In this document: piece after piece, positions 3,695-40,060 of the stretch
How positions within the stretch are numbered: the first letter of the stretch is position 1
Layout: each line of letters opens with the position of its first letter
Assembly (NCBI RefSeq): GCF_050920415.1
Contig: NZ_CP169309.1
DNA: 64,000 nucleotides
Origin: Escherichia coli
GTDB lineage: Bacteria > Pseudomonadota > Gammaproteobacteria > Enterobacterales > Enterobacteriaceae
Strand: one strand, 5' to 3'
Notes under the pieces: model-generated
The model's input: only the letters and a program-made list of their open reading frames with translations
What the model was told of the DNA's origin: nothing
The model's database searches: none
Translations under genes and position numbers: made by a program

Positions 3695-3696
3695 TG

Positions 3697-3903: not shown

Positions 3904-4400
3904 AGCTCCGCAAAGATTCGCGGGCGGCGCAGAATGTCAGAGATGGCCCAGCTCACATCGCGCCACAAATCCGATGTCTGTATATCCAGTGCGTCCGCGC
4001 GGCGGTCGCCCTTATCCGTTGTGTCCGCATCGCGGTAACGCTCCAGAATCAGGGCGCGTGTGGCGGTATAAACGGCATTGCGCCAGTGCCAGAGATTGAC
4101 GCTTTCTCCGTTAATTACGGGTGCCGGAACATCGGCCAGCGTCTGATGGCCAGCCGCCTGTTGTTCCTGCTGCCACGCTTCCAGCTCGCGGGTAACGTGT
4201 GCCACGGCCCCGGTGGCGGTATGCAGCAGGCGGGAGGTGGTCACACGGCCCGGCAGTCGTATCGCCAGACGCAGCTCACGCAGCACAATATCCGGCCAGA
4301 ATGCGCCCGCTGAAATACGGGTATCACCATCATCGGTATCGGTGATGTCGTCCTCTGCGGGTCCGGGGTTGGTTCTGGCAACCATACTCATGGGGTTCAC
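3897..4400 (-). CDS. head completion/stabilisation protein L
   Basis: 167-aa ORF downstream of terminase M; P2 gpL position. Confidence 0.7.
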   Translation of the reverse strand: MNPMSMVARTNPGPAEDDITDTDDGDTRISAGAFWPDIVLRELRLAIRLPGRVTTSRLLHTATGAVAHVTRELEAWQQEQQAAGHQTLADVPAPVINGESVNLWHWRNAVYTATRALILERYRDADTTDKGDRRADALDIQTSDLWRDVSWAISDILRRPRIFAELC

Positions 4401-4492
4401 TCCTGAAAAAATCGGGCGGTGGGTGCGCGGTGTAAACGGTCACGGAGTCAAACCGGAACACCGCGCACGCCGCCCGCTGACGGGGTCAGTCG

Positions 4493-5293: not shown

Positions 5294-5338
5294 TTTTTCT
5301 CTCCGTTACAGGCGGGCATGATGCCCGCCGTGAGTTGA

Positions 5339-6391: not shown

Positions 6392-6414
6392 AAAAAATTT
6401 GCTCCTTTGTCTTA

Positions 6415-7251: not shown

Positions 7252-7405
7252 AGTTTTTGCCCCTCTGACTGGTTCTTCAGTCATGATGGCAAAGCGTAAC
7301 AGGCTGATACAAAGGGCTTTTGTTGTAAGAAAACGGCCAGAACAGGGGGTTAAGGAGAACGGTTTCGCGCGCGGGTAATCTTCCTGTAATTACTCAGGGG
7401 GAGCA

Positions 7406-9157
7406 ATGATTCAGGACGCTTTTGTGCGCCAGCGTGCGCGGCAACTTTACTGGCAGGGTTATCCGCCCGCAGAAATATCACGTCTGATGGGAATAAACCC
7501 GAACACGATTTATGCGTGGAAAAAACGCGACCAGTGGGATGAAACGCCACCCGTGCAGCGTGTCACGCAGTCCATCGATGCGCGCCTCATCCAGCTCACT
7601 GAAAAACAGAATAAAACAGGTGGTGACTTCAAGGAAATAGACCTGCTGACCCGGCAGCTTAAAAAACTGCATGATGGCCAGCCGGATGCGACGGCCACAG
7701 GAAAGAAAGGCCGGGCGAAAAAGCTTAAAAATCATTTCACGCCGGAACAGATTGCCGCACTGCGGGAAAAAATCATCAGCAGGCTGGAGTGGCATCAGCG
7801 GGGCTGGTTTGACTCCCTGACCCTTTGCAGGGAAGCAGGGATACGTAACAGGATGATCCTGAAATCCCGACAGATTGGGGCGACCTGGTATTTTGCACAG
7901 GAAGCGCTGCTGATGGCGCTGCGTGACGATGTGGCGCAACCTTACCAGCGTAACCAGATTTTTTTGTCTGCGTCGCGTCGTCAGGCGTTCCAGTTTAAAA
8001 GCATTATTCAGAAGGCCGCGGCTGAAGTTGATGTGGAGTTGAAAGGGGGCGATAAAATCATCCTCTCCAACGGCGCAGAGCTGCATTTTCTCGGCACTTC
8101 TGCTGCGTCGGCACAGTCCTATACGGGCAATTTTTATTTTGATGAATTTTTCTGGGTCAGTCGCTTTGCTGAACTGCGCAAGGTGGCTGGCGCTATGGCA
8201 ACCCTCAGCGGACTGCGGCGCACCTACTTCTCCACGCCATCCACCGAAACGCACGAGGCATACGCCTACTGGAACGGCGACCGCTGGAACGAGAAAAAGG
8301 CCACGCATAAACGCCAGCGTTTTTCTGTGGACTGGAAAACGCTGCATAACGGGCTTATCTGCCCTGACCGGACGTGGCGGCAAATTGTCACGCTGGAAGA
8401 TGTGGTTAATCACGGCTGGAAACACACCGATATCGACGAAATTCGTGATGAAAACACCGAAGACGAGTTCCTCAATCTCTATATGTGTGAGTTTGTCCGC
8501 GAAGGGGAATCGGCATTTAACCTGAATATCCTGATTGGCTGCGGTGTTGACGGATACGACGACTGGAAAGACTGGAAACCTTTTGCTCCCCGCCCGATGG
8601 GGAATCGTCCGGTATGGATTGGGTATGACGCAAACGGCAGCAGTGGCAACGGCGACAGCGGCGCTGTGTCCGTGGTGGTTCCTCCGTCTGTTCCTGGTGG
8701 CCGTTTTCGAACGGTGGAGACGCGACGCGCTCAGGGGCTGGAGTTTGAAGAACAGGCCAGAGTCATTGAAGAGTTCACGTGTCGCTACAACGTGGAACAC
8801 ATCGGCATTGATGTGACGGGCGGGAACGGGGAGGCTGTTTATCAGATAGTGAAACGGTTTTTCCCTGCCGCTATTCCGTACACCTTCACGCTGTCATCAA
8901 AACGGTCGCTGGTACTGAAAATGCTGCAAATAATGCGTGCCGGGCGGTGGGAATACGATCGCGCCGAACGCGAGCTGGTCGCGGCCTTTAACGCCGTGCG
9001 TAAGGTGAAAACACCGGGCGGCTTTATCACTTACGAAACGGACCGCGCGAGGGGGATCAGCCACGGCGACCTTGCGTGGGCAACCATGCTTGCTGTCATT
9101 AACGAACCAATTGGCGGCGAAGGAGAAAACGAGCGTTTCACGGTTATGGAGTTCTGA
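7406..9157 (+). CDS. terminase large (ATPase) subunit P
   Basis: 583-aa ORF divergent from O, P2 gpP-like size and position. Confidence 0.8.
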   Translation: MIQDAFVRQRARQLYWQGYPPAEISRLMGINPNTIYAWKKRDQWDETPPVQRVTQSIDARLIQLTEKQNKTGGDFKEIDLLTRQLKKLHDGQPDATATGKKGRAKKLKNHFTPEQIAALREKIISRLEWHQRGWFDSLTLCREAGIRNRMILKSRQIGATWYFAQEALLMALRDDVAQPYQRNQIFLSASRRQAFQFKSIIQKAAAEVDVELKGGDKIILSNGAELHFLGTSAASAQSYTGNFYFDEFFWVSRFAELRKVAGAMATLSGLRRTYFSTPSTETHEAYAYWNGDRWNEKKATHKRQRFSVDWKTLHNGLICPDRTWRQIVTLEDVVNHGWKHTDIDEIRDENTEDEFLNLYMCEFVREGESAFNLNILIGCGVDGYDDWKDWKPFAPRPMGNRPVWIGYDANGSSGNGDSGAVSVVVPPSVPGGRFRTVETRRAQGLEFEEQARVIEEFTCRYNVEHIGIDVTGGNGEAVYQIVKRFFPAAIPYTFTLSSKRSLVLKMLQIMRAGRWEYDRAERELVAAFNAVRKVKTPGGFITYETDRARGISHGDLAWATMLAVINEPIGGEGENERFTVMEF

Positions 9158-10203
9158 TGAGCAGAAAAAATAAAAAAGTGCGCATGAGTTCACGCATTGA
9201 TCTCGCTGATGCGCTCAGGAAAGAATCATCGCTCAGTGCATTCACATTTGATGGTCCTTATCGCCTGACCGGGCATGACCTGCTGGACAATATGTACTGT
9301 GCTGATAACGGGCGGTGGTATGAAACCCCGGTGGACTGGTACGGTCTGGCAAGAGCCGCCCGGCAAACGTCCTGGCATCAGTCTGCGCTTTACTTTAAGC
9401 GCAATGTATTGCTCGGTTGCTACATCCCGCACCCGCTGCTTTCCCGGCAGGATTTCTCGGCGCTGGCGCTGGACTGGTTTGTGTTCGGTAACGCATTCCT
9501 TGAGCTTCGAAGCAATATGCTCGGCGAACCGCTTAAATTACGGCACGCCCTGGCGAAATACATGCGACGCGGAAGCGATCTTGAATCATGGTGGTATGTG
9601 CAGGATGGCAAGGATGCGTTTCAGTTTCGCCCAGGCAAAGTGTGCCACCTGATGAATCCGGACATTAACCAGGAAATCTACGGCATGCCGGAATATCTCG
9701 GCGCATTACTCTCGGCCAGCCTGTCTCATTCGGCGGACATGTTCAGAAAACTGTATTACGACAACGGATCCCACGCCGGGTGCATCATCTACATCGGTGC
9801 AGCGCAGGTAAACCGCGAAAGCATGGACTCCCTGAAAGAAACGCTACAGGGTGCGCGTGGTGGTGGTGCGTTTAAAAACGTGCTCATTCATGCGCCCAAC
9901 GGGGGCAAAGAGGGGGTGCAAATTTTGCCGTTCCAGCAGATCACCGCAAAGGATGAGTTCATGAATGTTAAGGCGGCATCCCGTGATGATGTGCTGGCTG
10001 CGCACCGCGTTCCGCCGCAACTGATGGGGGCGATGCCGGGTGAAAAAAGTGCGTTTGGTGATGTGGAGAAGGCCGCGCGGGTTTACGCAATTAACGAGCT
10101 GATGCCCGTCATGGAGGCCATGAAGCATATCAATGACTGGCTTGGCGAAGAGGTGCTCCGCTTTAACCCTTACGCACTGCTGGACACCCAGCCCACATCC
10201 TGA
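9157..10203 (+). CDS. portal protein Q
   Basis: 348-aa ORF directly downstream of P, start overlapping P stop; P2 gpQ-like size. Confidence 0.8.
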   Translation: MSRKNKKVRMSSRIDLADALRKESSLSAFTFDGPYRLTGHDLLDNMYCADNGRWYETPVDWYGLARAARQTSWHQSALYFKRNVLLGCYIPHPLLSRQDFSALALDWFVFGNAFLELRSNMLGEPLKLRHALAKYMRRGSDLESWWYVQDGKDAFQFRPGKVCHLMNPDINQEIYGMPEYLGALLSASLSHSADMFRKLYYDNGSHAGCIIYIGAAQVNRESMDSLKETLQGARGGGAFKNVLIHAPNGGKEGVQILPFQQITAKDEFMNVKAASRDDVLAAHRVPPQLMGAMPGEKSAFGDVEKAARVYAINELMPVMEAMKHINDWLGEEVLRFNPYALLDTQPTS

Positions 10204-10694
10204 CGCGCTTCGCTTGTCTGCTGCTTCGCCGGGGCATAAAAAATTTATGCCCCGACTCTCCAGCTCCTGTATCAGTCAGATAATTTCACGACGCCTTCCA
10301 GTTTATCGCCACTATCGACAGTCAGACTCTTACGCAATCCCACTGCGCTGACTGCATGTTCTCGCCGCCTCAGTGCGATTTTGACGGCCTTATCTGCCAC
10401 CCCGTCAAATCAAAAGCCCTCACGTCTTTTTCACGCTCAGCGTGAGAAATACAGCCATTCTGTTGTGTCGCTGCGACATCGTTCAGGGGATGCTATTTAC
10501 CCCCTGAAACGCGGGCTGTTCCCCCGTCACCTGCGCGTAGAAAAAGCGCGTTTTTTTGTGCACGCACGGATCCTTGACGGATCCAGCCGCCACGCGGGCC
10601 GGAAGGGCAAAAAGTCGTTCAAAAAAATTGTGCAAATTTGTGCACTATTGTGCATTGAAATAAACGCCCTGGAAGAGGGCGTTTTGGCTCATTT
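10204..10694. other. non-coding region in the position of P2 cos / packaging site
   Basis: About 490 bp without credible ORF between portal Q and the accessory operon; contains three TGTGCA repeats (10631-10659) and a bidirectional hairpin cgccctggaagagggcg with flanking T/A runs. Cohesive-end sequence itself not identified. Confidence 0.35.
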
Positions 10695-10955
10695 CTATAG
10701 CTTTGATGCAGGCTGGGCTAGATGTAAGGGTTGGACATACCAGCCTTTTGATAACCAACTCTCTGCAACATCTTTACTCCTTGTTATTGCTGGTATTCCG
10801 ATGCCGTTATTTACATGCATCCATGCTACTGGCTCTGCTTCCAGCGATGCCAGTGCAATTTCATAAGCACGGCGTTCAATATTGTCTCGAACGTCCAGGC
10901 TGCCGATGCGCTCTTTGATTTCTTTAATCAGTTCTTTGTCGGTGAACGTTGTCAT
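10695..10955 (-). CDS. hypothetical protein (accessory operon, last gene)
   Basis: 86-aa ORF, no recognisable domain. Confidence 0.45.
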   Translation of the reverse strand: MTTFTDKELIKEIKERIGSLDVRDNIERRAYEIALASLEAEPVAWMHVNNGIGIPAITRSKDVAESWLSKGWYVQPLHLAQPASKL

Positions 10956-10965
10956 GTGTTAGTCC

Positions 10966-11229
10966 TTATCCTGCTGTGCTTTCAACTGATGAGGGGAACA
11001 AAATCTTTTCATCAAATCCGGCATTCATATCATGGACAGCAACACACCAATCCATCGACGAACGATTATCAAGAGCCTCCATGATTTCATCCATGCGGCG
11101 TAGGTCATACAGGTAAATGTTTTTATCGCCAATGGTGTAAAAACCAATTTTTTTCGGTGATGGACAGCGATCAAGAACGTCCTGTAATTCGTTCAACCAT
11201 GCCTGTTCTTTTTTTGTCAACGTTGCCAT
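10966..11229 (-). CDS. hypothetical protein (accessory operon)
   Basis: 87-aa product from internal Met MATLTKKEQAW; start trimmed to avoid overlap with upstream gene. Confidence 0.4.
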   Translation of the reverse strand: MATLTKKEQAWLNELQDVLDRCPSPKKIGFYTIGDKNIYLYDLRRMDEIMEALDNRSSMDWCVAVHDMNAGFDEKILFPSSVESTAG

Positions 11230-11230
11230 A

Positions 11231-11449
11231 TCAGTTTTCCTTATACGGATTAATTTTATTGTGCAATGTGTTGAACGACGCCCATACCACGTCGTTATAC
11301 AATTCAATAACTGGCTCAATTATTTTCCCGATTGCCCAGATAAAAATTAGCGGGGATATCGGTATCATCAACACGATAAACAGAATGAGAAACAGAAATT
11401 CTATTGCTCTACTCTTTCGCGGATAGTTTTTCCTGAATAGTGTAGGCAC
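11231..11449 (-). CDS. small membrane protein (accessory operon)
   Basis: 72 aa, GTG start preceded by AAGGAG; hydrophobic core FLFLILFIVLMIPISPLIFIWAIG; AT-rich. Confidence 0.45.
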   Translation of the reverse strand: MPTLFRKNYPRKSRAIEFLFLILFIVLMIPISPLIFIWAIGKIIEPVIELYNDVVWASFNTLHNKINPYKEN

Positions 11450-11450
11450 C

Positions 11451-11645
11451 TCACTCTCCTTTAATGCGAAAGTGGTTTTTCCAGCGGTTTTGCGCCGCGC
11501 TGGGCTTTTTGCAAAAACCGCAATCCATCATCCCGTAATATTTCATCAACCCCATTCGTCGGTTGCTGAGTCTCACCCACTGCCATACGCCTGGATCGTT
11601 TCTGCGAACTAACAGAATCTTTGCTTTACGGTTGTTGGTTGCCAT
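11451..11645 (-). CDS. small basic protein (accessory operon)
   Basis: 64 aa from ATG at 11645, preceded by AAGGGAGG Shine-Dalgarno. Confidence 0.45.
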   Translation of the reverse strand: MATNNRKAKILLVRRNDPGVWQWVRLSNRRMGLMKYYGMMDCGFCKKPSAAQNRWKNHFRIKGE

Positions 11646-11961
11646 ATCCCCCTCCCTTGATACCAATATTTACAACATGGCAAGCCTCTTTGAGCACCCA
11701 GTCAACAGCGTCTTTCCATGCTCCGGTTTCGGCTGGCGGATTCTCACGCTTTACCAGTTCATAGAAACGTACTGCTCTAACCAGTCCATCTGACGGTTTT
11801 GCCTGTAGTGCAGCCTGAGCTATGCGGTATGCCTGGAGTATACGGGCGTCGTTGATATCCATTCCGAACGGAATTTCTGATGATTGTGATTCTGCATCTT
11901 CAAGCCTGGCAATTTCTTTACGTAAGAAGTATTTCAACTCTTGTTTTTGTTTTCTGTTCAT
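11626..11961 (-). CDS. hypothetical protein (accessory operon)
   Basis: 111 aa; ATGA start/stop overlap with upstream zinc-finger gene; AAGGGA Shine-Dalgarno. Confidence 0.5.
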
Positions 11962-12290
11962 GCGTTTTTTCCCTTTTTGTCTGTCACTTCTCTCCTGATA
12001 ATTTCATTGCACAAATCCACGCACTCATTGCAGATGTAAACAGACGGTCCAGCAATCACCTTTGTGACTTCGTACTGGGATTTATTGCAGAAGCTGCAAT
12101 AAATCGTCTCCTCACCTGAAGTCCATGTTTTGCTGGTTTCGCCAGACATCAGTTGTTTGAGGTCTTTTTCACGACGAAGAACTATCTGGCCACATTCAGC
12201 TATTTTTTGGATGTTGACATTTTCTTCTTTCGCCAGCGCTTCCATCCGCTCAATCAGTCGCTGCGCTTTTTCTCTGTCAATGTGTTGCAT
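11958..12290 (-). CDS. small protein with C-terminal ClpX-type C4 zinc-finger domain
   Basis: Segment [40 protein letters not shown] closely matches the recalled N-terminal zinc-binding domain of ClpX ([40 protein letters not shown]); no AAA+ domain follows. AAGGGGGA Shine-Dalgarno. Confidence 0.6.
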
Positions 12291-12353
12291 TGTGTCCCCC
12301 TTGTTTATGCTCCCGGGTTAAAGTCATCAGGGCGGATGCGCCCTGATGTTGTG

Positions 12354-12665
12354 TTATTCGGGAAATAACGCCCGGATATTTCCGGCCATCTGACTGGTTA
12401 TCTGTGCGGCTGATACTGGCTGTGACGCGGGGCGTTCTGTCCTGGGTTGTGTCACTGATAACGCCTCATCATCAGCCCATGCAGCCAGTCGGTAAGCCTC
12501 TGCCGGATTCATTTTCAGTAGTGCCAGCCCGGCCAGAAAAGCCACGCGTTGACCACTTTTGCGGGCTTCTGGTGTAAGGCTGTCCAGCCAGGCGCATGCT
12601 TCGCCTTCGTTCTTGACGGCGGCGGGCTTCAGATAGAAACTTATCCGTCTGGTTGGTGTCGTCAT
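12354..12665 (-). CDS. ParR-like centromere-binding protein (ribbon-helix-helix)
   Basis: 103 aa; RRISFYLKP...WLDSL...FLAGLALL...NIRALFPE resembles recalled plasmid R1 ParR (RRTIAFKLNP...TLDSI...LTAGLALY...ILRSLFPKE); directly downstream of the ParM-like gene with AAGGAG Shine-Dalgarno. Confidence 0.6.
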   Translation of the reverse strand: MTTPTRRISFYLKPAAVKNEGEACAWLDSLTPEARKSGQRVAFLAGLALLKMNPAEAYRLAAWADDEALSVTQPRTERPASQPVSAAQITSQMAGNIRALFPE

Positions 12666-12669
12666 TGGC

Positions 12670-13629
12670 TTACTCCTTGTCCATTGCGTACAGCCCATTA
12701 ACCAGAGCAAACTGTGGCACCCCGTCCGCGATGAAAGTCGCATTAACTCCGCAGGCTTCGCGGATAGCGGGTGCCACAATCTCCGCCCCGCCACCGACAA
12801 CCATCACCCGCCCGTAACCCGAAAAACCCGCCAGCGCGCGGATCACGCGTTGTTTCAGTGTTTCTTCCTTTTCACGAATAACCGCCATCAGGCTGGCGTA
12901 ATGCGCGTCATTGTGGATGTGCTGGCGCAGCCAGGCTTCATCATGGCGATGTTCAATAATGGTATTGGCGATGTGGTGACTGGTGCGCATACCGTTAGTG
13001 GCCATCACCGACAGCACGGCATCGGCCATCAGTGAAACACCTACGTGTGGATCGCAAAACACCTGGCTGATACCTGCCAGTTGTCCCTGAACCTTTGCCA
13101 CATCCAGCGTGGTTCCGCCCAAATCCACAATCAGCAGGGATTCAAACGGACTCATGTCAGCCAGTGCCTTAAAGCCTGCCGGAATGGATTCAGGCATAAC
13201 CCGCACGTTACGGATAGTGAATGCCTCACCGTTCTGGTACTCCACCGGGCGCATAACGTTCGCTTTTTTGCGGTTGATGTTGGCCATGTCCGGCTGTGCG
13301 TTTGTGTCGAAATACTCGCTCAGTGGCAGGGTGACAACCACATCCACCTCCTGTGGCGTGATGCCTGATTTGACCAGCGCGTGATGAATGGCAATGACAT
13401 TCACATCGCTGTATTGGTATTGCGTGTCGGTCGTCTGGACAAAGCGATCGCTGACCGGATCAAAACCATAGCGCACGCCATCAAGCATGTAGTTCGCGGG
13501 CTGCGTGCCACCGAACGGCGCAGACCATTCCGACTTGAAGCTGTTCGGGCTGATGGCGTTGCGGCGTTCGCCGTTCTCAGTCCATGCCAGCTTGATGTTG
13601 GTGGAGCCGTCGTCGATACAAATTTTCAT
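12670..13629 (-). CDS. ParM/StbA-like actin-fold segregation ATPase
   Basis: 319 aa with the ParM nucleotide-binding motifs: MKICIDDGSTNIKLAW (phosphate 1), IVDLGGTTLDV (connect/adenosine), VMVVGGGAEI (phosphate 2). Confidence 0.8.
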   Translation of the reverse strand: MKICIDDGSTNIKLAWTENGERRNAISPNSFKSEWSAPFGGTQPANYMLDGVRYGFDPVSDRFVQTTDTQYQYSDVNVIAIHHALVKSGITPQEVDVVVTLPLSEYFDTNAQPDMANINRKKANVMRPVEYQNGEAFTIRNVRVMPESIPAGFKALADMSPFESLLIVDLGGTTLDVAKVQGQLAGISQVFCDPHVGVSLMADAVLSVMATNGMRTSHHIANTIIEHRHDEAWLRQHIHNDAHYASLMAVIREKEETLKQRVIRALAGFSGYGRVMVVGGGAEIVAPAIREACGVNATFIADGVPQFALVNGLYAMDKE

Positions 13630-13660
13630 GTCGCTTTTCCTTATGTTGATTAATTAATCG

Positions 13661-13760
13661 TTTACGGGATTCTGAAATCCCGTTTTTGCCTGCTTTGTGC
13701 GCGCTTCATATATCACTGCGCGTTTTTTGCTCATTTACGGGATTCGTGAGTCCCGTTTCT
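13661..13760. repeat. two direct copies of a 27-bp hairpin-containing repeat upstream of the ParM-like gene
   Basis: TTTACGGGATTCTGAAATCCCGTTTTT (13661-13687) and TTTACGGGATTCGTGAGTCCCGTTTCT (13734-13760), 22/27 identical, each an ACGGGA/TCCCGT inverted repeat; the second lies inside the 3' end of gene A. Confidence 0.5.
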
Positions 13761-16528
13761 GTCTGTTTTTTGTTTCCGCTGGTCAGGCCACCCCGCAGCA
13801 GGTCTGCTTTGCGGCTGGCGCGTTCAGTGGTTTCACTGATTCTCTGTGCGTGCTCTGCGTCGCGGATGGCGCGCAGCATGTCAGAAAGCACAGTAACGGG
13901 TGTTTTCATGGTGTTCTGGTCCTGCTGAAGTGTGGATGCCAGGCGTGCGGCGGCTTCAGGGTCTGATGCCCCCAGCTGTGCCAGATAGCTGGCGACCGGG
14001 TTATGGCGGATCTCCGTGCTGCTTACGCCATGATTACGGCTCAGGCGCTGCCAGAGCTGCGTGATTCGGCTGTCCGGGCGGGTATCCGGTTTGCGTACAA
14101 TTTCAAATCCCTGCGGTGCAATGATGCTGCCGTCAACGTACAGACTGCCGCCCCGTAACAGGTGCTGCATCTGTTGTTCACCGATATGCAGGCCGAGAGA
14201 TTCAGCAGACTCCCGCCATTCTTTAGCGAGTAATTCGTGGTTATCAGGCAAAGGCCGCTGCTGTTTGCGGCTCTGTGTCCAGCTCTGCATTTCATCACTG
14301 CTGTTTTTTGCCTGTTTGTCACGAAGCGAACGCATCAGCGCCCGGCGTTCGTGCCGTTTCAGTGAGCGCATCCATTCGTTCACTTCAACGCCGTCAGGGA
14401 GCTGCGGCCACGGTGCTGGCCGTTCTTCCGGCTGTTCTGTCCCGTTGTTGTCCGTTTCCTGTGCACGGGGACAGTTATTGCCACGAGTCCAAGGGGCGGC
14501 AGGGCCGCCCTGAAGGTCAAAACCATTTTCGTGGGCGTTGTCTCCCGGTTCTGGTTTACGTCTTACCAGCTTCCAGTTATCCGGATGCGTGCACACACGG
14601 GAGGATTCCCCGATGAGTGGTGACCAGATCCCGTAAATCTGTACGCTCTGTTCGCCGTAATCGTTCAGCTCATCTGCGAGGTCGTAGGCGGTGCGAATCA
14701 GGTAGTCCTTGCGTGGAACAAGCACGCCACCCTGTTTTTCAATGTAGGTGGCAAAACACCCGGCATCGGCGGCAGCGAGTACCGCATCCATTGCATCATC
14801 TTTCAGCCGTTGCGGGCCTTCCGGATTGCGTGCCATCTGGCTGGCAAGGCGGCGCAGTTCACGCCACACCTGACGGGAGGGGATGCCAAAGAACTGGAAC
14901 TGACGGACCCGGTGAAGGCGCGCCCAGCCGATGGCGCGCTCCACGCTCTCGGCCATTGATTTTCCGGTTTCGTGGTCAACGCGTGGCTTGCCCGTTTTCG
15001 GGTCGATGCCATCCACGGCGCGGCTGTCCAGGTTCTTTCCGATGTAGGTGGCGATGTAGCTGGTTGGTGTGCCTTTTGAGCCGTCGACATACTCCGCCTT
15101 AAAACGCGGAGTTATGTCATCGCCCAGCTCGTGGCGGTCCTCCTGAATGGCAATATCGCAGACGTGGGACACGATGGTTTCAATCTCGTCCGGATGTGCA
15201 AAGACCATCATATGCCAGTGCACAGTGCCGTCATGGTGAGGCTCCACCGTGCGGATGCCATACCAGCGCAGGCCGTCGCGGTTCAGTTTTTTGCGGACCG
15301 CCGCAAAAAACGTGTTAACCAGGTAATCGCTGGAGTCGCGCATGGTGGCCCCGTTCCATTTGGGGTTCGGATGACCGTTCTCCGTTGTTGCGTGGTATTT
15401 TGACGGGCAGGTGACGGTCAGAAACACCGCTCTGTCGCCACGGGCTTCGGCCAGAAGTTCCAGTCCCTTCATGGTGGCCATCATTTCTGCCTTACGGTGA
15501 ACCGGGTTACTTACTCCCGCGTAATACACCGTCTCGAGATCAATCGTGAACCCGTCTTCATTTTCCAGCATGAAACTTTTCAGGAAATCGCGTGTTTTCT
15601 CGCGCTGTGCGCGAAACTCGCTTAACGCGTCCTGGCTCAGATAGGGGGATGTTTTTCTGGAAACCAGACAGGCGGCGCGGAGTTGTTCTTCCCGCCACTC
15701 ACAACGTAACAGCCACAGTTTGCGTTTCCACCATTCCGCACAGGTCAAGCGAAGGATTGCGCCCGGCAGCAGCTCCGTGTCCGGTTCGTTCCTCCGGTCT
15801 TTGTCTGTTGTCAGTGCGTCATAATGTGGAGGCATGGCGTGCAGGTGTAACGCCATGCGGGCCAGCATCTGATAAGCCTTCAGGGTTACATCCATGGTCA
15901 GCTCGCCATCAGTCGCGCCAAAGCCATCGCAGAGTTTTTCGAAGGTGCTGCTGAACATCGCCGCCGTCATGGTGGCCAGCGTCTGTATCTGGTGTTTGTT
16001 GAGCTGCGGCAGGTAAAGCAAATCGTCCAGGCGTTCGCGTCCGGCAAGGGAGCGATAACCCGGTGTCAGCCAGCGGTGGTCGGTGCGGTCCAGACGTTCG
16101 AATATTTTGCGCAGGGTTCCGCACGCGTAGCGTTCAGCCTGCCAGCTCTTTTTGCCTTTCCGGCGATCGGCTTCCTGTTTTTTGCGCAGGAAGGAGAGGT
16201 GGCGAATAAGCGGATCGCGCAGATAGGACGGCAGCAGGCGCAGCGAGGCCATGGCTTCATCCACCGCGCCACGTGCCTGTTTTCTGGCGTCTCCTGCCAG
16301 TGTGATGGTTTTGTCCTGTTTTTCCTGTGCGTCCAGGCTTTTATTAATCAGGTTGCCCAGCGGCGTGGCGGAGAACGCCGCATCAGCCATTTCCTGGCGG
16401 CGCTCGTTCTCTGCCCGGTAGGCATCCAGCCAGGAGGAAAGCGCGGATTCAGGAGCGGGGATCCCCGTTCCTTCACGCCCCACTGCGTGGCGCGGTTGTT
16501 GCCAGTCCCTGATGTACTCTGCCGTCAT
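13706..16528 (-). CDS. replication initiation protein A (rolling-circle nicking endonuclease, P2 gpA-like)
   Basis: 940 aa; HUH-type motif region GTVHWHMMVF and tyrosine motif TSYIATYIGK; position between early genes and accessory region. Confidence 0.8.
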   Translation of the reverse strand: MTAEYIRDWQQPRHAVGREGTGIPAPESALSSWLDAYRAENERRQEMADAAFSATPLGNLINKSLDAQEKQDKTITLAGDARKQARGAVDEAMASLRLLPSYLRDPLIRHLSFLRKKQEADRRKGKKSWQAERYACGTLRKIFERLDRTDHRWLTPGYRSLAGRERLDDLLYLPQLNKHQIQTLATMTAAMFSSTFEKLCDGFGATDGELTMDVTLKAYQMLARMALHLHAMPPHYDALTTDKDRRNEPDTELLPGAILRLTCAEWWKRKLWLLRCEWREEQLRAACLVSRKTSPYLSQDALSEFRAQREKTRDFLKSFMLENEDGFTIDLETVYYAGVSNPVHRKAEMMATMKGLELLAEARGDRAVFLTVTCPSKYHATTENGHPNPKWNGATMRDSSDYLVNTFFAAVRKKLNRDGLRWYGIRTVEPHHDGTVHWHMMVFAHPDEIETIVSHVCDIAIQEDRHELGDDITPRFKAEYVDGSKGTPTSYIATYIGKNLDSRAVDGIDPKTGKPRVDHETGKSMAESVERAIGWARLHRVRQFQFFGIPSRQVWRELRRLASQMARNPEGPQRLKDDAMDAVLAAADAGCFATYIEKQGGVLVPRKDYLIRTAYDLADELNDYGEQSVQIYGIWSPLIGESSRVCTHPDNWKLVRRKPEPGDNAHENGFDLQGGPAAPWTRGNNCPRAQETDNNGTEQPEERPAPWPQLPDGVEVNEWMRSLKRHERRALMRSLRDKQAKNSSDEMQSWTQSRKQQRPLPDNHELLAKEWRESAESLGLHIGEQQMQHLLRGGSLYVDGSIIAPQGFEIVRKPDTRPDSRITQLWQRLSRNHGVSSTEIRHNPVASYLAQLGASDPEAAARLASTLQQDQNTMKTPVTVLSDMLRAIRDAEHAQRISETTERASRKADLLRGGLTSGNKKQTETGLTNPVNEQKTRSDI

Positions 16529-16534
16529 AGTGAT

Positions 16535-16900
16535 TTACTTCGTCATGCCATTCAGGGTGTCGCGGCAGACTGTAGCCAGCCGCTGAATTTCCAGCACGGT
16601 GTCTTCTGTGTCGGCATGGCGATGTGTGATGCGGATGCTGTCGGCAATCACATCGACGATTGCAGAGGATGGGCGCTGGTAAATGCCAATAACGGACGGG
16701 GTGCCACCTTCAATGCGGTAAAGCCTGTAATTTCCCTCGTGGCTGTCAATCATGTAGCGACCATCAATAACAATCTTTCCGTCAGCGAGCTGCGGTACAG
16801 GCAGGGATTTCAGGTACATGTCATAACGATCACGCACGCGAGCGGCAAGATCACGTTCTGTGTTGAGCAGGTATTCAAGAAAGTCGTTGGCGAGAATCAT
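16535..16900 (-). CDS. hypothetical early protein
   Basis: 121-aa ORF immediately upstream of A on the same strand. Confidence 0.45.
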   Translation of the reverse strand: MILANDFLEYLLNTERDLAARVRDRYDMYLKSLPVPQLADGKIVIDGRYMIDSHEGNYRLYRIEGGTPSVIGIYQRPSSAIVDVIADSIRITHRHADTEDTVLEIQRLATVCRDTLNGMTK

Positions 16901-17041
16901 TGCGGCAATCCTCTTGTTACAGATGTGCGAAGGCCTCCCGCCGCAAGGTGCAGGAAAGGCCCGGAACAGGAATTAATGGAGTTTGTTTTGCAGCCGGATG
17001 AGCTGCTGAAGCCCGACGTGGTTTCCGGCAGTTGGAGGTGC

Positions 17042-17287
17042 TCATGCTCTGATTTCCCTCAGTAGCTGGTTGAACATCTGGGTTAGTGGGTTGCTACACC
17101 CAAACGGCATCGGGTTTACCTGATAGGAAAAGCGACCGCCTGTTTTGCGCTCTTTTCTTATGACTGAACCGCTGCGCCAGAGACGGCGTAGCTCCGCATT
17201 AATGGTTGTGGTTGGTGTATTCAGTGCTGCGGCGATTTCTCCACCGCTACAACCCGGATTGGCAGCGATGTAGTCCAGAATGGTCAT
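17042..17287 (-). CDS. small putative winged-helix DNA-binding protein
   Basis: 81 aa; pattern ILDYIAANPGCSGGEIAAALN...INAELRRLWRSG suggests a winged helix. Confidence 0.45.
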   Translation of the reverse strand: MTILDYIAANPGCSGGEIAAALNTPTTTINAELRRLWRSGSVIRKERKTGGRFSYQVNPMPFGCSNPLTQMFNQLLREIRA

Positions 17288-17487
17288 CTGCGTGACTCCT
17301 GTACCTGTCTGATAAGATTCACCTGCACCACGTTGGTGGCGCAGAAGTAAGTGCCGTCAGTGAGATAGATGTGATGTGCATCCTTTTCTGAACGGTGTTT
17401 GTCGATTGTGGTAATCAGGCGTTCGTCAACTTCGTATTCACGTCCTCTGGAGGTGAAACGAACGACAGGAAAATGCTTAATTGCCAT
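17284..17487 (-). CDS. hypothetical early protein
   Basis: 67 aa from ATG at 17487 preceded by AAGGAGG; a longer upstream extension to 17538 is possible. Confidence 0.4.
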   Translation of the reverse strand: MAIKHFPVVRFTSRGREYEVDERLITTIDKHRSEKDAHHIYLTDGTYFCATNVVQVNLIRQVQESRR

Positions 17488-17683
17488 TACGCCTCCTTGG
17501 CGTGTGCGAATACCTCCGCGAATGCGGATTGTTTTCACATTTTCTTATTTAACCTGGGGTCTTATTTGCGCGGTTATTCTTCAGTGAAAAAGCGTTCAAT
17601 CTTTTTTACTGAATTAATAATTCGCATAATCCCAATGGCGCAGACCACCGAAATAATCAGAACAAGCCATGAGATAAATATAC

Positions 17684-17929
17684 TCATGCGATATTTCCCA
17701 GCTTATACGGTTCAATATGTTCCCCGCATTCTGCGGCACAGATCAGCTCGGAAAGTTCGTTAAGTGCATCCAGATCATCAGCGTAAAAAGCCACGTCATA
17801 CAGACTTCGGATTGCTCTGGTCAATGAGTCACGGGCCGCACGTTCAGCATGAGTGCCTGATGCACTTAAGCGAAAATAAAAACGCTCAAGTGCTTTGTTA
17901 ATGAGAGTTTTATATTCTTTGCCCATCAC
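17684..17929 (-). CDS. hypothetical early protein
   Basis: 81-aa ORF in the early operon. Confidence 0.4.
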   Translation of the reverse strand: MMGKEYKTLINKALERFYFRLSASGTHAERAARDSLTRAIRSLYDVAFYADDLDALNELSELICAAECGEHIEPYKLGNIA

Positions 17930-17964
17930 AACGCCCTTTAATCTGCTTTCTGTATTTCAGCTTC

Positions 17965-18225
17965 TTAATCCATACAAATAATTTCGATATAGGGTTCATC
18001 GCCATTAACCTGGCGTGCCTTTTCAGCTTCGCTAATGATTTCTCGTACGGTCTGGTACGGAAGTTCCACAAGCAGTCGCGTGCCGTTCAGATAAACGTAA
18101 GTGGCTTCGTCGGCTCCGTTTTTACCCGCCGGAGTCACTCCGTCAATAGCGGATGCACGTAATAACAGTTCACCGCGAAAATCAATAAAACGGATAAATA
18201 CACCTTGTGCATGGTCTTTGGTCAT
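17965..18225 (-). CDS. hypothetical early protein
   Basis: 86 aa from internal Met; longer form would overlap the upstream gene by 104 nt. Confidence 0.4.
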   Translation of the reverse strand: MTKDHAQGVFIRFIDFRGELLLRASAIDGVTPAGKNGADEATYVYLNGTRLLVELPYQTVREIISEAEKARQVNGDEPYIEIICMD

Positions 18226-18235
18226 AAAGCACCTG

Positions 18236-18586
18236 TTATAAATCAGCCTGTTTAATAAAACTTTGCCTGCGAAGCAGACGATCAACCGTGCGAAGTGCTT
18301 CGTATAATGTGAAATCCTGCCCGAACTGATTGTCGCCACAGCTCAATGCAAAAATGCGGTTTCCGGTAAACGGATTGCGTGGGCATTTGTGGACCACGAT
18401 TCCAGCTTTCTCAATCAGCCAGGCATGCTCGCCGATTTGTTTTACAGCGTGGCCATCCGGTGTTGCGTGCGTCTCGTTCAGGTTATAGCGACTGTTACTA
18501 CGTGATGCACTGGTAGTGACGTGGTGTACATGGCGTTCTACGCCATTACGAAATTTGGAGTATGGATTATTAGCGTTTTTTTTCAT
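18236..18586 (-). CDS. hypothetical early protein
   Basis: 116-aa ORF in the early operon. Confidence 0.45.
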   Translation of the reverse strand: MKKNANNPYSKFRNGVERHVHHVTTSASRSNSRYNLNETHATPDGHAVKQIGEHAWLIEKAGIVVHKCPRNPFTGNRIFALSCGDNQFGQDFTLYEALRTVDRLLRRQSFIKQADL

Positions 18587-18607
18587 GATGGTGCTCTGTT
18601 CATTGTT

Positions 18608-18811
18608 TTAGCTGTTAGCCAAAGCGTCTTTTAACATCGCCACAAGGTTTACTTCAGGCTTTTCCATTTTGGCGCGTTTGGGGCGGATAATAATTCGACC
18701 GTCAGCCAACATCTTTTTGCATGTATTAAGAGGGATACCTGTTATCTCTGCATATTTCTGCAGGGATACATAGGGGGCATTCACATTGATATTGATGGTT
18801 ATACCTGACAT
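18608..18811 (-). CDS. Cox/Apl-like small HTH regulator (putative excisionase/lytic-switch protein)
   Basis: 67 aa; YVSLQKYAEITGIPLNTCKKMLADGRI resembles the HTH segment of P2 Cox-type proteins; second gene of the operon divergent from the repressor. Confidence 0.5.
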   Translation of the reverse strand: MSGITININVNAPYVSLQKYAEITGIPLNTCKKMLADGRIIIRPKRAKMEKPEVNLVAMLKDALANS

Positions 18812-18827
18812 CCCACTAGCCTCCTGA

Positions 18828-19034
18828 TCAGGAAGATTTGTTTTGTTCTTTCTGGGTTAGCTCTAGGCCGCGAAGGAAGATCATGCGCGCCATGTTAGAG
18901 GATGAGCGTTGTTCTTTAGCTGCCATTTCATCAATGACGGCTCGCTCCTCGAGGGACAGCCGAAGTGCCAGTCTTGGACCTGTGGCGGTGTTACGCGGAA
19001 TGCGTGATCTGGTATCGTGAAGAACTTGTTTCAT
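18828..19034 (-). CDS. small putative DNA-binding regulator (first gene of early lytic operon)
   Basis: 68 aa, divergent from the CI-like repressor; Cro-like position. Confidence 0.4.
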   Translation of the reverse strand: MKQVLHDTRSRIPRNTATGPRLALRLSLEERAVIDEMAAKEQRSSSNMARMIFLRGLELTQKEQNKSS

Positions 19035-19075
19035 AGTGGTATATTGTGATCATCTAATAGCTCGTGAAATCATTT

Positions 19076-19093
19076 TGGTATCAAAAAAGATAC
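19076..19093. promoter_or_regulatory. putative operator palindrome in the divergent switch region
   Basis: Perfect inverted repeat GGTATC-AAAAAA-GATACC between the divergent repressor and early-operon starts. Confidence 0.4.
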
Positions 19094-19109
19094 CTGTCAA
19101 GGTTTTTGT

Positions 19110-19514
19110 ATGAAAAATGATATTGGTCAGCGGTTGCGTGAGGAAAGGGAAAGATTGGGACTTAGTCAAGTTGCCATGAGCGACATTGGTGGAGTCAAAA
19201 AGCTAACTCAGCTTAGATATGAGAAAGGAGATAGCTTTCCTGATGCTGCGTATTTGGCAGCGCTGTCTCGTTTTGGCCTTGATGTTCAGTATGTTGTGTT
19301 GGGAATTCACTCACCTGAAACTTATAACGATGATGAGCAGGAGTTGATTACTCGCTTTCGAGCAGCTTCGTTAGATGTGAAAAACGCGGTGATTGGGGCT
19401 TTAAAAGGTGCGATCAGTGAAAAGGAAACTCAGCCATCAGGACGTGAGTTAAATATTTCTGGTGGTAATAACCGTATTGCTGGTCGTGACTATAACGAAA
19501 CTAAGGGTAGGTGA
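19110..19514 (+). CDS. CI-like immunity repressor, HTH XRE family
   Basis: 134 aa; N-terminal IGQRLREERERLGLSQVAMSDIGGVKKLTQLRYEKG is a classic XRE helix-turn-helix; transcribed toward the integrase as in 186. Confidence 0.75.
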   Translation: MKNDIGQRLREERERLGLSQVAMSDIGGVKKLTQLRYEKGDSFPDAAYLAALSRFGLDVQYVVLGIHSPETYNDDEQELITRFRAASLDVKNAVIGALKGAISEKETQPSGRELNISGGNNRIAGRDYNETKGR

Positions 19515-19529
19515 TAGTAGGGAGGTGAC

Positions 19530-20180
19530 ATGGCCGTCAACTCAAACGGTTCAAACAATCGCGTTGCTGGGCGTGATTTTCACGAAAAGAATATTCAGAT
19601 AGAGCGATATGATGGTTCTCATACCGTCAATATCGCAATCCCTTCGAATAATGATGATGACGATCGCCCTTTGCTTAAGGCTCAGCGTAAGGAGCTAAAT
19701 AGTTTGGTTGCTGCTATTGCAGAAGCTAGCAATACTGAAGCGTTTATTATTTGGCAAAAAGTACATGCTGAGATTGGTGTAGCTGGTATTGATGATATGA
19801 CAGTAAATCAATATAAAACAGCGGAGAGTTTTCTGCATGCAATGCTTGAGCGATGTAAAGATCATGATGCCTGTAAGGCTCTTGTAAGTTTATTACTACG
19901 TAACAGTGAAGACTGTGGACTTCGACAAAAACTTCTGCGGTATTGCCATATCAATTTCGGTACAGGACGTTTAAACGATCTTACTCGTTCTCAGTTACAG
20001 TCTGCATTGTCGTGGTTAGAGCAACAATCGGCATCAAGCCACACAGAGAGTTCGACCTTACCAGAAGTCCGACTTCGTGCTTCAGAATTAATCCGACTTT
20101 ATCCAAAAGAAATAATATTCTTTATCTGCGTAGGGGGTTTGGTAGGCGGTGTCATTTCTAGGGTGCTTTTTAATTTGTAA
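19530..20180 (+). CDS. cargo protein, C-terminally membrane-anchored, unknown function
   Basis: 216 aa, GGGAGG Shine-Dalgarno; C-terminal TM helix IIFFICVGGLVGGVISRVLF; N-terminus repeats a peptide motif found at the repressor C-terminus. Confidence 0.55.
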   Translation: MAVNSNGSNNRVAGRDFHEKNIQIERYDGSHTVNIAIPSNNDDDDRPLLKAQRKELNSLVAAIAEASNTEAFIIWQKVHAEIGVAGIDDMTVNQYKTAESFLHAMLERCKDHDACKALVSLLLRNSEDCGLRQKLLRYCHINFGTGRLNDLTRSQLQSALSWLEQQSASSHTESSTLPEVRLRASELIRLYPKEIIFFICVGGLVGGVISRVLFNL

Positions 20181-20209
20181 TCTTACTTGAGCTAAATTGA
20201 GGTAATGAT

Positions 20210-20557
20210 ATGAAAGTAAAAAAGGTTCAACTATTAGTTACTTTTTTATCTATGTTTTCTTTTTCCGCCGTCGCAATGCCTTTTAAAACTATTGAACGTG
20301 AGAGTTTCAATGGGGTATGGCCATTTAATACTGATGAGGTTCAATTACAGTGTCTTGATGGTAATCCTTATGTGATGAATTTTGACGATAATAAGTTATA
20401 TGCACTTACAGGTTTGGCTCGAATAAAAGGTAAAACATTTGGTGCGTTACCGTTAGATAACAATAATCCATTTTGGCTAGATAATGATGCCGCCCCAGGG
20501 TTAAAAAAGAGTCTGGGGGATGTCACTAAGGCTGCATTTGATTTATGTGATAAGTAA
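20210..20557 (+). CDS. cargo protein, secreted/periplasmic, unknown function
   Basis: 115 aa with signal peptide MKVKKVQLLVTFLSMFSFSAVA, no lipobox, two Cys in mature part; strongly AT-rich coding sequence. Confidence 0.6.
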   Translation: MKVKKVQLLVTFLSMFSFSAVAMPFKTIERESFNGVWPFNTDEVQLQCLDGNPYVMNFDDNKLYALTGLARIKGKTFGALPLDNNNPFWLDNDAAPGLKKSLGDVTKAAFDLCDK

Positions 20558-20562
20558 CTAAA

Positions 20563-21564
20563 ATGTCGGTTCGTAAGATTCCATCAGGTAAATGGCTTTG
20601 CGAATGTTATCCCTACGGGGCATCGGGAAAACGCATTCGTAAACAGTTTGCGACAAAAAGTGAGGCGCTCTCTTATGAGCGCCGTTTAATGAATAGTAGA
20701 GTTGGAGACGAGTTTCAAGATGGTTCTGGTCCTCGTCTTTCTGAGTTGATTGCTCGTTGGTTTGAGATGTACGGTAAAACCTTGTCCTCTGGTGCAGAGC
20801 GCAAAGTCAAACTTGAGGCGATTTGTTCCAGGCTGGGAGATCCATTTGCTTCTCAGTTTGACAAAAATATGTTTGCTACTTATCGGGAAAGAAGGCTATC
20901 AGGAGAATGGAATCCCAAGGGGAAGAAAAAACTTAGTGAAGCAACCGTTAATCGCGAGCAGTCATATCTACATGCTGTTTTTGCCGAACTGAAGCGCCTT
21001 GGGGAGTGGTCTGGTGAAAACCCCCTGACTGGTATTCGCAAGTTTCGTGAGGAAGAAAAGGAACTGGCGTTTCTGTATGTAGATGAGATTGAACGCCTTC
21101 TGATTGCGTGTGATGAGTCACGGAATAAAGATTTGGGGGTTGTTGTCCGTATTGGGCTTGCGACTGGTGCTCGGTGGAGTGAAGCAGAAGGATTAAAGCA
21201 ATCTCAAGTACTGCCCGGTCGAATCACATTTGTTAAAACTAAAGGAAAGAAGAACCGCACTGTACCGATTTCACCTCAATTGCAGGCTATGCTTCCTAAA
21301 AAACGAGGAGCGCTATTTTCACCATGTTATGAGGCTTTTGACGCTGCAATTAAGAGAGCGAAGATCGAGCTTCCTGATGGGCAATTAACTCATGTGCTAC
21401 GTCACACGTTTGCCAGTCATTTTATGATGCGGGGCGGAAATATTCTTGTGTTGCAAAAAATACTGGGGCATAGCGATATAAAAATGACTATGCGTTATGC
21501 GCATTTTGCTCCAGGTCATTTAGAGGCTGCTGTTGAATTGAACCCTTTTGACAATAGAGGGTAA
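20563..21564 (+). CDS. int: prophage integrase (tyrosine recombinase)
   Basis: 333 aa; catalytic motifs HVLRHTFASHF and TMRYAH; last prophage gene before the tRNA fragment. Confidence 0.85.
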   Translation: MSVRKIPSGKWLCECYPYGASGKRIRKQFATKSEALSYERRLMNSRVGDEFQDGSGPRLSELIARWFEMYGKTLSSGAERKVKLEAICSRLGDPFASQFDKNMFATYRERRLSGEWNPKGKKKLSEATVNREQSYLHAVFAELKRLGEWSGENPLTGIRKFREEEKELAFLYVDEIERLLIACDESRNKDLGVVVRIGLATGARWSEAEGLKQSQVLPGRITFVKTKGKKNRTVPISPQLQAMLPKKRGALFSPCYEAFDAAIKRAKIELPDGQLTHVLRHTFASHFMMRGGNILVLQKILGHSDIKMTMRYAHFAPGHLEAAVELNPFDNRG

Positions 21565-21670
21565 AAAGTGGCGATAAAAAGTGACAATAGATTCAAATGG
21601 CGTTGTATAGAGCCATTTTCAAAGTTAATAAAATCATAAGGTTATGATTTATAAATGGTGGTTGATAGTT

Positions 21671-21725
21671 TTTAAAATCCCTCGGCGTTCGCGCTGTGCG
21701 GGTTCAAGTCCCGCTCCGGGTACCA
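21671..21725 (+). other. leuZ: att junction: 3' 55 nt of tRNA-Leu(UAA) (leuZ-like) ending in CCA; partial gene only
   Basis: TTTAAAATCCCTCGGCGTTCGCGCTGTGCGGGTTCAAGTCCCGCTCCGGGTACCA matches the anticodon loop to 3' end of leuZ as recalled; the 5' half is replaced by phage DNA with only degenerate similarity. Confidence 0.7.
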
Positions 21726-21768
21726 TGGGAAAGATAAGAATAAAATCAAAGCAATAAGCAGTGTCGTG

Positions 21769-21792
21769 AAACCACCTTCGGGTGGTTTTTTT
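21769..21792 (+). terminator. rho-independent terminator downstream of the tRNA 3' end
   Basis: Hairpin ACCACCTTCGGGTGGT followed by a run of seven T. Confidence 0.65.
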
Positions 21793-21920
21793 GTACCTGC
21801 AACTTGTCGTTACACCCTCCTTAATTTTTAATCACCGGCAAAGCCACTCAAAAAGTATCTCTGATACGGACCGACATGTAAGATAGGTGTTGGCGAGTTG
21901 AGATCCACAAGGAAAAGCGT

Positions 21921-22586
21921 ATGAAAACGGGACCGTTAAACGAAAGTGAGTTGGAATGGCTGGACGATATTCTGACCAAATACAACACTGACCACGCCAT
22001 TCTTGATGTGGCGGAGCTGGACGGTTTATTGACGGCGGTGTTGAGTTCTCCGCAAGAGATTGAACCGGCACAGTGGCTGGTTGCCGTATGGGGTGGGGCT
22101 GACTATGTGCCACGCTGGGCGTCAGAGAAAGAGATGACGCGCTTTATGAACCTGGCTTTTCAGCATATGGCCGATACCGCAGAGCGTCTGAACGAATTCC
22201 CGGAGCAGTTTGAGCCGTTATTCGGCTTGCGAGAAGTCGATGGCAGCGAGCTGACGATTGTTGAGGAGTGGTGCTTTGGCTATATGCGGGGCGTGGCACT
22301 TTCTGACTGGTCAACGTTGCCCGATTCGTTAAAACCGGCGCTGGAGGCGATTGCGCTGCACGGTACTGAGGAAAACTTCGAGCGGGTAGAGAAGATGTCG
22401 CCAGAAGCGTTTGAAGAGAGCGTAGATGCCATTCGACTGGCGGCGCTTGATTTACATGCATACTGGATGGCGCATCCGCAGGAAAAAGCTGTTCAGCAAC
22501 CGATCAAAGCAGAAGAGAAACCGGGTCGTAACGATCCTTGTCCGTGCGGCAGTGGTAAGAAATTTAAGCAGTGCTGCCTGCATTAA
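21921..22586 (+). CDS. yecA: YecA, UPF0149 protein with C-terminal SEC-C metal-binding motif
   Basis: 221 aa ending [13 protein letters not shown]; K-12 gene order next to leuZ. Confidence 0.85.
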
Positions 22587-39916: not shown

Positions 39917-40060
39917 TTATCCCGATTTCCTCAATTGCAATGAACCCGATGATCTGCGCATCGGGTTTTTTATGTCAATTTTGCGGTGGATGGCATCATT
40001 AATAAAGTTTCCCTCCTTCTTGCCGATAACGAGATCAACTTGTTTTCAGGAAGGTGCCTT

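Follow-up and report, generated by a model that had tools for sequence, protein, structure and literature searches.

The locus examined here raises the question of what a piece of tRNA-Leu sequence between a phage integrase gene and the E. coli gene yecA represents, how far the duplicated DNA to which it belongs extends, and what its presence could mean for the tRNA operon concerned. The analysis was carried out on a stretch of 64,000 nt of the E. coli contig NZ_CP169309.1 (assembly GCF_050920415.1), hereafter the window, in which the region around this piece comprises the following features:

1–21670: right approximately 21.7 kb of a P88-like (Xuanwuvirus, P2-family) prophage, assigned by collinearity with the prophage of E. 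coli FORC_069
20563–21564, plus strand: tyrosine integrase of 333 aa, transcribed toward the att site (phrog_1, E = 1.4e-76; Pfam Int_N, 8.7e-32, and Phage_integrase)
21565–21670, plus strand: phage arm P of attR/attP, identical in the attP of an IMG/VR contig (L016)
21671–21795, plus strand: common core O of the att sites, 125 bp, common to attB, attP, attL and attR in a four-way alignment
21671–21725, plus strand: truncated leuZ, the 3′ 55 nt from anticodon loop to CCA (sequence identity; no tRNA by ARAGORN or Rfam)
21726–21792, plus strand: second 3′ETS-leuZ copy with its Rho-independent terminator, hairpin 21769–21788 and T-run to 21792 (identity to b4759; fold)
21769–21792: hairpin and T-run, that is, the terminator within the duplicated block
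21796–22586, plus strand: host flank B′ with yecA (21921–22586), continuous with the empty-site strains N3, A10 and 2013C-4282 and with K-12

Specifically, positions 21671–21725 (TTTAAAATCCCTCGGCGTTCGCGCTGTGCGGGTTCAAGTCCCGCTCCGGGTACCA) match exactly, over 55 of 55 bases, nucleotides 33–87 of the 87-nt leuZ gene for tRNA-Leu(UAA), as annotated in E. coli FORC_069 and K-12. The match starts 106 nt after the end of the integrase ORF, at base 1 of the anticodon loop (7 nt, TTTAAAA, with TAA as the anticodon). From there it continues through the 3′ strand of the anticodon stem and the variable and T arms to the terminal ACCA; the first 32 nt of leuZ are missing. This arrangement, with only the part of tRNA-Leu from anticodon loop to CCA beside int, followed by a terminator and yecA, is the one that the original prediction had described. 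ARAGORN detected no tRNA gene in the entire 64-kb window, and Rfam gave no tRNA match at gathering threshold in the window and none at E ≤ 10 in 21400–21950. Therefore the leuZ piece is a fragment rather than a gene: its cloverleaf is incomplete and it is not a functional tRNA gene.

A lone leuZ fragment in 64 kb that hold no tRNA might also be a dead pseudogene, left behind when an insertion or deletion cut leuZ, with no intact copy at the distal end of the prophage. The four forms of the attachment site bear directly on this possibility. For attP, sequences were searched with a pattern joining the phage arm on the left of the block to the arm on its right, and one IMG/VR contig was found, UViG_2548876853_000002 (locus L016, 3797–3943), in which int is followed without interruption by the 106-nt arm, the 125-bp block and the other arm, and which carries downstream of attP minus-strand ORFs sized like ogr (86 aa) and D (413 aa). 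The empty site, attB, in which leuZ leads directly to yecA through a single block, was found in E. coli N3, A10 and 2013C-4282, K-12 being likewise of the empty type. An empty leuZ site in related strains had been proposed as a check of the junction, and it is present in the sequences of these three strains, which also share the rare A that the window carries at 21795. As for attL, it was examined in two related lysogens. FORC_069 (locus L001) shows the order pgsA-glyW-cysT-leuZ, a 36.3-kb P2-like prophage, int and yecA, with the block at both prophage ends, and O145 RM8988-C1 has the same intact glyW-cysT-leuZ at the far prophage end; in both lysogens the intact operon lies about 36 kb away and bears the matching repeat. 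To the right of the block at attL lies the phage arm P′ (TTTGTATTTTGTGCAATGGCGG). A four-way alignment of the N3 attB, the L016 attP, the lysogen attL and the attR of the window gave the forms BOB′, POP′, BOP′ and POB′, with O equal to 125 bp.

A simple truncation is difficult to reconcile with these data, as attP has the same block and leuZ is intact at attL in both related lysogens examined. In addition, 5424 of the 5426 complete E. coli genomes contain the block at least once, and the best copies listed overlap an annotated tRNA-Leu in every case. UUA codons in E. coli are read by tRNA-Leu(UAA), which is encoded by one gene copy, and its loss would not be tolerated. A pseudogene without an intact partner is thus extremely improbable. 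We conclude, with high confidence, that 21565–21795 is the attR (POB′) of a P88-like P2-family prophage inserted in leuZ by a tyrosine integrase. The predicted prophage junction at leuZ agrees with all four att forms, the reading of the fragment beside int as the displaced 3′ part of the tRNA is supported, and the right end of the prophage lies at 21670/21671. By analogy with the related lysogens, an intact glyW-cysT-leuZ cluster would be expected at the far prophage end of this strain.

The duplicated DNA proved to be longer than the 55-bp tRNA 3′ duplicate that had been proposed. The longest exact match of the window to the FORC_069 attL spans 21671–21795, that is, 125 bp, and the same exact repeat is obtained against attP; a repeat finder run on FORC_069 returned this block as a repeat pair whose members are 36,318 bp apart. 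The additional 70 bp begin immediately after CCA and end just beyond the T-run of the terminator, and within them positions 21726–21792 are identical to 3′ETS-leuZ (b4759), a 67-nt ncRNA annotated right after leuZ in K-12. The likeness between the two copies is one of sequence: in K-12 the RNA follows leuZ and the promoter of the tRNA operon, whereas the window copy is preceded by the phage int gene and the tRNA fragment, the tRNA operon being absent upstream of it within the window. Since the block spans 3′ETS-leuZ and the terminator, both prophage ends carry the "native terminator", which had been assigned to the host flank and is in fact inside the duplicate. 3′ETS-leuZ is an RNA cut by RNase E from the glyW-cysT-leuZ transcript, and it binds Hfq and acts as a sponge by pairing with the sRNAs RyhB and RybB (PMC6191717; bioRxiv 10.1101/2021.04.25.441314).

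Rfam contains no family for 3′ETS-leuZ; weak Rfam matches to sroD and STnc130, in 21400–21950 and in the window, were set aside as terminator look-alikes. The RNA fold of the whole block is no more stable than those of shuffled sequences (z = −0.86), and the only meaningful folds within it are the local T-arm and terminator hairpins.

Compared with K-12, the block measures 124 bp, position 21795 being A in the window and G in K-12 and FORC_069. The A occurs in 33 of 4426 genomes and is a rare host polymorphism, the three A-bearing genomes examined (N3, A10 and 2013C-4282) being empty sites; the core is therefore 124 bp in most hosts. A phage origin of this A, with the crossover at the right block edge, was also considered and rejected on the basis of the same three empty sites. 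The block is otherwise nearly invariant, with a copy of at least 99% identity in 5419 of the 5424 E. coli genomes that gave a match. Altogether 7103 copies were counted in those 5424 genomes, which leaves about 1,700 extra ones, and an extra copy is present in at most 31% of the complete E. coli genomes.

The junction itself is of an ordinary and already known kind, namely the attR of a prophage of the P2 family that occupies leuZ. The succession of int, block and yecA was found in 522 of 5426 complete E. coli genomes, with up to 99.8% identity, and leuZ has been described as a site of prophages or islands in STEC O121:H19 and O145:H28 (PMC8767318, PMC7067040). In the literature searched, no paper links the leuZ att core with a duplication of 3′ETS-leuZ, and the duplication of this sRNA by the att core is, as far as searched, a small new point. 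For annotation, it means that the tRNA-like piece should be recorded as a fragment, and that the left end of such a prophage is to be sought with the 125-bp block and not with 55 bp.

The phage and host versions of the block do not differ at any base, so the sequences compared do not reveal where this integrase makes its crossover. Strand exchange at the left edge of the block, in or near the anticodon loop, is nevertheless suggested by other elements that target leuZ. Five independent leuZ-targeting modules share the base at which their identity with leuZ begins, or begin 2 nt earlier: those of the window phage, of the vB_EcoM-705R4 type, of the lambdoid phages mEp390 and Fostie, of Pectobacterium phage ZF40 and of a 19-kb island of O145. 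The start at the same base is thus a feature that the window phage shares with mEp390, for which attP is annotated, Fostie, ZF40, the 705R4 type and the O145:H28 element, while the integrases and arms of these elements are unrelated to its own. In strain 2017.04.02CC, the intact leuZ beside an island has element-type bases from the T stem onward, with several changes in the spacer and a compensated change of a C-G to a T-A pair in the T stem, as in mEp390. These element-type bases show that, for that element, the rebuilt 3′ part of leuZ is element-supplied, and they place its exchange within the first approximately 29 nt of the block. O145 has the block in triplicate; there the island arm remains linked to a SNP in the terminator loop (TCCG), and the leuZ and yecA copies read TTCG. 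What counts against the left edge is that the left flank of attP, GATAGTT, is unlike the 5′ anticodon stem AAGGGA, so that the symmetry of attB is absent from the attP core.

Integrases that target tRNA genes are known to use an anticodon-loop sublocation (bioRxiv 10.1101/2020.11.02.365908), and the element restores the split target, the displaced fragment marking the element end (Islander, PMC4383910). If the crossover does take place in the anticodon loop, the copy on the yecA side would be derived from the host and the copy in the intact leuZ from the phage, which is the reverse of the attP-derived copy beside int initially envisaged. With the tyrosine-integrase elements described in those studies (PMC4383910; bioRxiv 10.1101/2020.11.02.365908), the window prophage has in common the split and restored target, the displaced 3′ fragment and the identity from the anticodon loop on. 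It differs from them in that its block extends 70 bp beyond CCA to the end of the terminator, restoring and duplicating an sRNA. An att identity of comparable length, reaching downstream sequence of a tRNA operon, is that of phage HP1 of Haemophilus.

The other leuZ-targeting elements offer further comparisons. mEp390, Fostie, ZF40 and the O145 island also carry, on their own arm, a 3′ETS-like spacer and a terminator. In mEp390, Fostie and ZF40 int lies on the opposite side from that of the window phage. The spacer of mEp390 has diverged, the identity over the block being 88%, and the compensatory T-stem change from C-G to T-A is shared by mEp390, Fostie and the 2017.04.02CC island. The attP sites of mEp390 (L004, 2499–2619), Fostie (L005) and ZF40 (L006, 378–433) contain the 3′ half of leuZ with spacer- and terminator-like sequence, in which the blocks AGAATAAAATCAA and ATAAGCAGTGTCGT are conserved; the terminator differs in its loop in mEp390 and Fostie and has a compensated stem pair in ZF40.

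Two strains show leuZ occupancy of other kinds. O145 RM8988-C1 has a tandem arrangement, with a 19-kb island between the P2-like prophage and yecA (L020, 2330–21285; L021) that encodes type I restriction-modification, DUF262, a DNA polymerase and integrase fragments; the terminator-loop SNP mentioned above is that of the middle one of its three blocks. In 2017.04.02CC (L026, 2969–3140) the sole copy of the block, 94.4% identical, follows the intact leuZ beside the island integrase, so that the compensated T-stem change is in the live tRNA and 3′ETS-leuZ is an element-supplied sequence variant.

A further question concerns the phage arm between int and the core, for which a degenerate tRNA-like segment resembling the D arm had been claimed. 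The short sequences located in this arm are as follows:

21567–21575: AGTGGCGAT, in the P arm directly after the int stop codon
21580–21588: AGTGACAAT, a degenerate copy of AGTGGCGAT
21655–21668: ATGGTGGTTGATAG, in the P arm, the string named in the original prediction

Also in this arm, at 21631–21650, is a perfect 9-bp palindrome, AAATCATAA GG TTATGATTT.

The resemblance of ATGGTGGTTGATAG to leuZ would be explained if it were the decayed relic of the leuZ D arm, attP having once held more of the tRNA. Indeed, its ATGGTGG corresponds to leuZ nucleotides 7–13, its TTGATAG is loosely like TCGGTAG if a gap is allowed, the two follow in the right order near the core, and a 7-mer match to the 5′ part of leuZ has a P of about 0.03 in mononucleotide shuffles. 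This 7-mer is, however, the only one that ATGGTGGTTGATAG shares with the 5′ part of leuZ, and real prophage DNA is less favourable than shuffled sequence: a word of at least 7 shared with the leuZ 5′ part occurs in 6.7% of real prophage 60-mers, and 27% of them reach an equal local alignment score, for which the shuffles themselves give P = 0.16. In register, only 6 of 32 bases of the P arm are identical to the 5′ part of leuZ, which is about chance, and the P-arm segment is 10 nt too short to accommodate it. Furthermore, the 7-mer is broken in phage 520873, the closest one in the database, which has ATTGTGG for ATGGTGG, and a D-arm similarity was found in none of four attP or att flanks of other leuZ-targeting elements. 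Like motifs occur elsewhere in the phage arms, namely AAATGGCGTTGTATAG (21595–21610) and TGGCGGTTGAG (P′ arm), so that a phage-internal repeat suits equally well; the resemblances of these two to the 5′ part of leuZ are no more significant than that of ATGGTGGTTGATAG. Nor are attP-derived copies known to carry remnants of a D arm as a regular property. The claimed mimic thus reduces to one shared 7-mer, out of register and at chance level, and a relic origin appears very unlikely. As a protein-binding site of the P arm, AGTGGCGAT, which occurs twice in tandem in the P′ arm, is a better candidate than ATGGTGGTTGATAG, and it might bind Int.

The integrase reads toward the att site as the last gene of an apparent lysogenic operon of four, which lies next to a divergent early region. 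The genes upstream of int are the following:

18608–18811, minus strand: Cox-like excisionase/repressor (PHROG phrog_575, E = 1.2e-27)
18828–19034, minus strand: Arc-like repressor (PHROG phrog_3431, E = 9.8e-29)
19110–19514, plus strand: HTH repressor (PHROG match; RefSeq name in FORC_069)
19530–20180, plus strand: membrane protein of 216 aa (PHROG match; RefSeq name in FORC_069)
20210–20557, plus strand: DUF2511 protein of 115 aa (PHROG match; RefSeq name in FORC_069)

The two minus-strand genes (18608–19034) are the start of the early operon. The genes for the repressor, the membrane protein, the DUF2511 protein and the integrase are on the same strand, with gaps of 5–29 nt between their ORFs. 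The two extra genes between repressor and int (19530–20557) have a GC content of about 41% and could be lysogenic-conversion or exclusion genes. PADLOC gave no matches on these operon morons (19530–20557) nor on the ORFs of a variable region at 10200–12670. The latter is a low-GC (43%) region between the portal and partition genes that differs from FORC_069, and its ORFs have an unknown PHROG family or none. Cargo is often found at this position in P2-family phages.

The prophage as a whole is collinear with that of FORC_069 at 95–97.5% identity, and the best megablast match of window positions 1–22000 among the 5426 complete E. coli genomes is 97.4%. The structural, lysis and replication genes are of the P2 type in both set and order, as judged from Pfam families in related loci and from the RefSeq names of FORC_069. 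Two of the tail proteins are widespread, with exact matches in 3847 and 2209 blocks, the contigs being 96.7–98.2% identical to the window. The start of the window cuts the baseplate genes, and approximately 13–15 kb more of the prophage should lie upstream. A 1.9-kb gene with DUF6645/SASA domains, present in FORC_069 and several relatives between the lysis genes and gpR, is missing at window positions ~2392–2492. A ParM-like gene and a partition-protein gene at 12354–13629 on the minus strand (phrog_691, 1.8e-90; phrog_2515, 1.9e-57) form a plasmid-type segregation module inside this P2-family phage.

Two phages are the closest points of reference. Phage P88 (NC_026014) shares 97.1% identity over 1–18538, including the structural, lysis, replication and ParM genes in P2-type order, but has no match to 18539–21670; it possesses a different immunity, integrase and att module, and the leuZ site is not shared. 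Phage 520873 (Xuanwuvirus xv520873, NC_049344), in contrast, has the same immunity-int-att module and the same attR-yecA junction, with 98% identity over 19000–21795, and a backbone of 96% identity over 92% of 1–21670. Its record is that of an excised prophage including yecA, its integrase, annotated there as two fragments, has 96% protein identity, and, unlike the window, it lacks 1 nt of the T-arm portion of the block. In the phage database, the module at 18539–21670 is common only to the window and 520873, and the integrase is 56% identical to the next phage integrases after that of 520873 and about 39% to those of Peduovirus. The prophage is modular, a P88-like backbone (1–18538) being combined with a non-P88 module for immunity, integrase and att.

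Beyond the prophage, the sRNA MicL (53991–54298, plus strand; 365.8 bits) and C0465 RNA (39936–40013, minus strand; 77.6 bits) were detected by Rfam at gathering threshold. Given MicL, C0465, yecA and tyrP, the remaining part of the window is an E. coli-type chromosomal region.

Taken together, these comparisons suggest the following course of integration. The target of the tyrosine integrase is leuZ, the final gene of the glyW-cysT-leuZ operon, and the phage is inserted there by way of an attP that carries the 3′ end of this operon as a block of 124–125 bp, which begins with base 1 of the anticodon loop and stops where the T-run of the terminator ends. The block would in this way cover what integration severs, that is, the 3′ half of the tRNA, the sponge and the terminator. 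Following strand exchange at the left block edge, in or near the anticodon loop, leuZ, 3′ETS and terminator would be rebuilt at attL from phage-supplied DNA, and the original 3′ segment of the host would be moved to attR, where it would stand promoterless and truncated at its 5′ end, 106 nt past int and before yecA. attR and attL together constitute the excision substrate. A simple and insensitive scan, which also missed the leuZ terminator, found no terminator in the interval from int to the block; hence the captured leuZ terminator, the first recognisable one after int in both phage and prophage, probably ends the repressor-int transcript. Assuming read-through into the block, this transcript would end with a truncated tRNA and an intact 3′ETS-leuZ.

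Such a transcript opens the possibility that the attR copy is more than a displaced fragment, and that it provides the lysogen with a specific second source of 3′ETS-leuZ, which would titrate RyhB and RybB. At 100% identity, the copy matches the annotated sRNA throughout, with its A/G-rich single-stranded stretch and its terminator. It follows int by 106 nt on the strand of that gene, and int belongs to an operon of four genes led by a repressor that a lysogen must express; the scan mentioned above revealed no other terminator on the way. As to its release, the native RNA is freed by an RNase E cut after the tRNA (PMC6191717; bioRxiv 10.1101/2021.04.25.441314), and the attR copy would have to be processed without the folded 5′ half of the tRNA. 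Moreover, transcription from repressor to int is expected to be far below that of the tRNA operon, so that the added dose may be negligible, and promoter-like sites show no excess (3 found against 7.0 expected) that would signal a dedicated promoter of the attR copy. On balance, a titrating second source in lysogens seems unlikely; detectable expression of the attR copy is given about the same modest chance, and a physiological effect a smaller one.

Beyond its role as a prophage boundary, the locus has an att core that takes in a functional sRNA, so that lysogens hold two copies of 3′ETS-leuZ. In more general terms, it can be proposed that leuZ-targeting elements carry their own sponge, that in lysogens the sponge of the tRNA operon is supplied by the element and the attR copy is made from the repressor-int transcript, and that leuZ occupancy could thereby alter the buffering of RyhB and RybB. 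This proposal is improbable, more so than the expression of the attR copy taken by itself. With mEp390-type phages, and with islands like that of 2017.04.02CC, the sponge supplied would differ in sequence, and with such diverged elements the copy on the live tRNA operon would be the variant. If an extra or variant copy is expressed, carriage of a leuZ prophage would constitute a natural perturbation of the RyhB/RybB sponge circuit.
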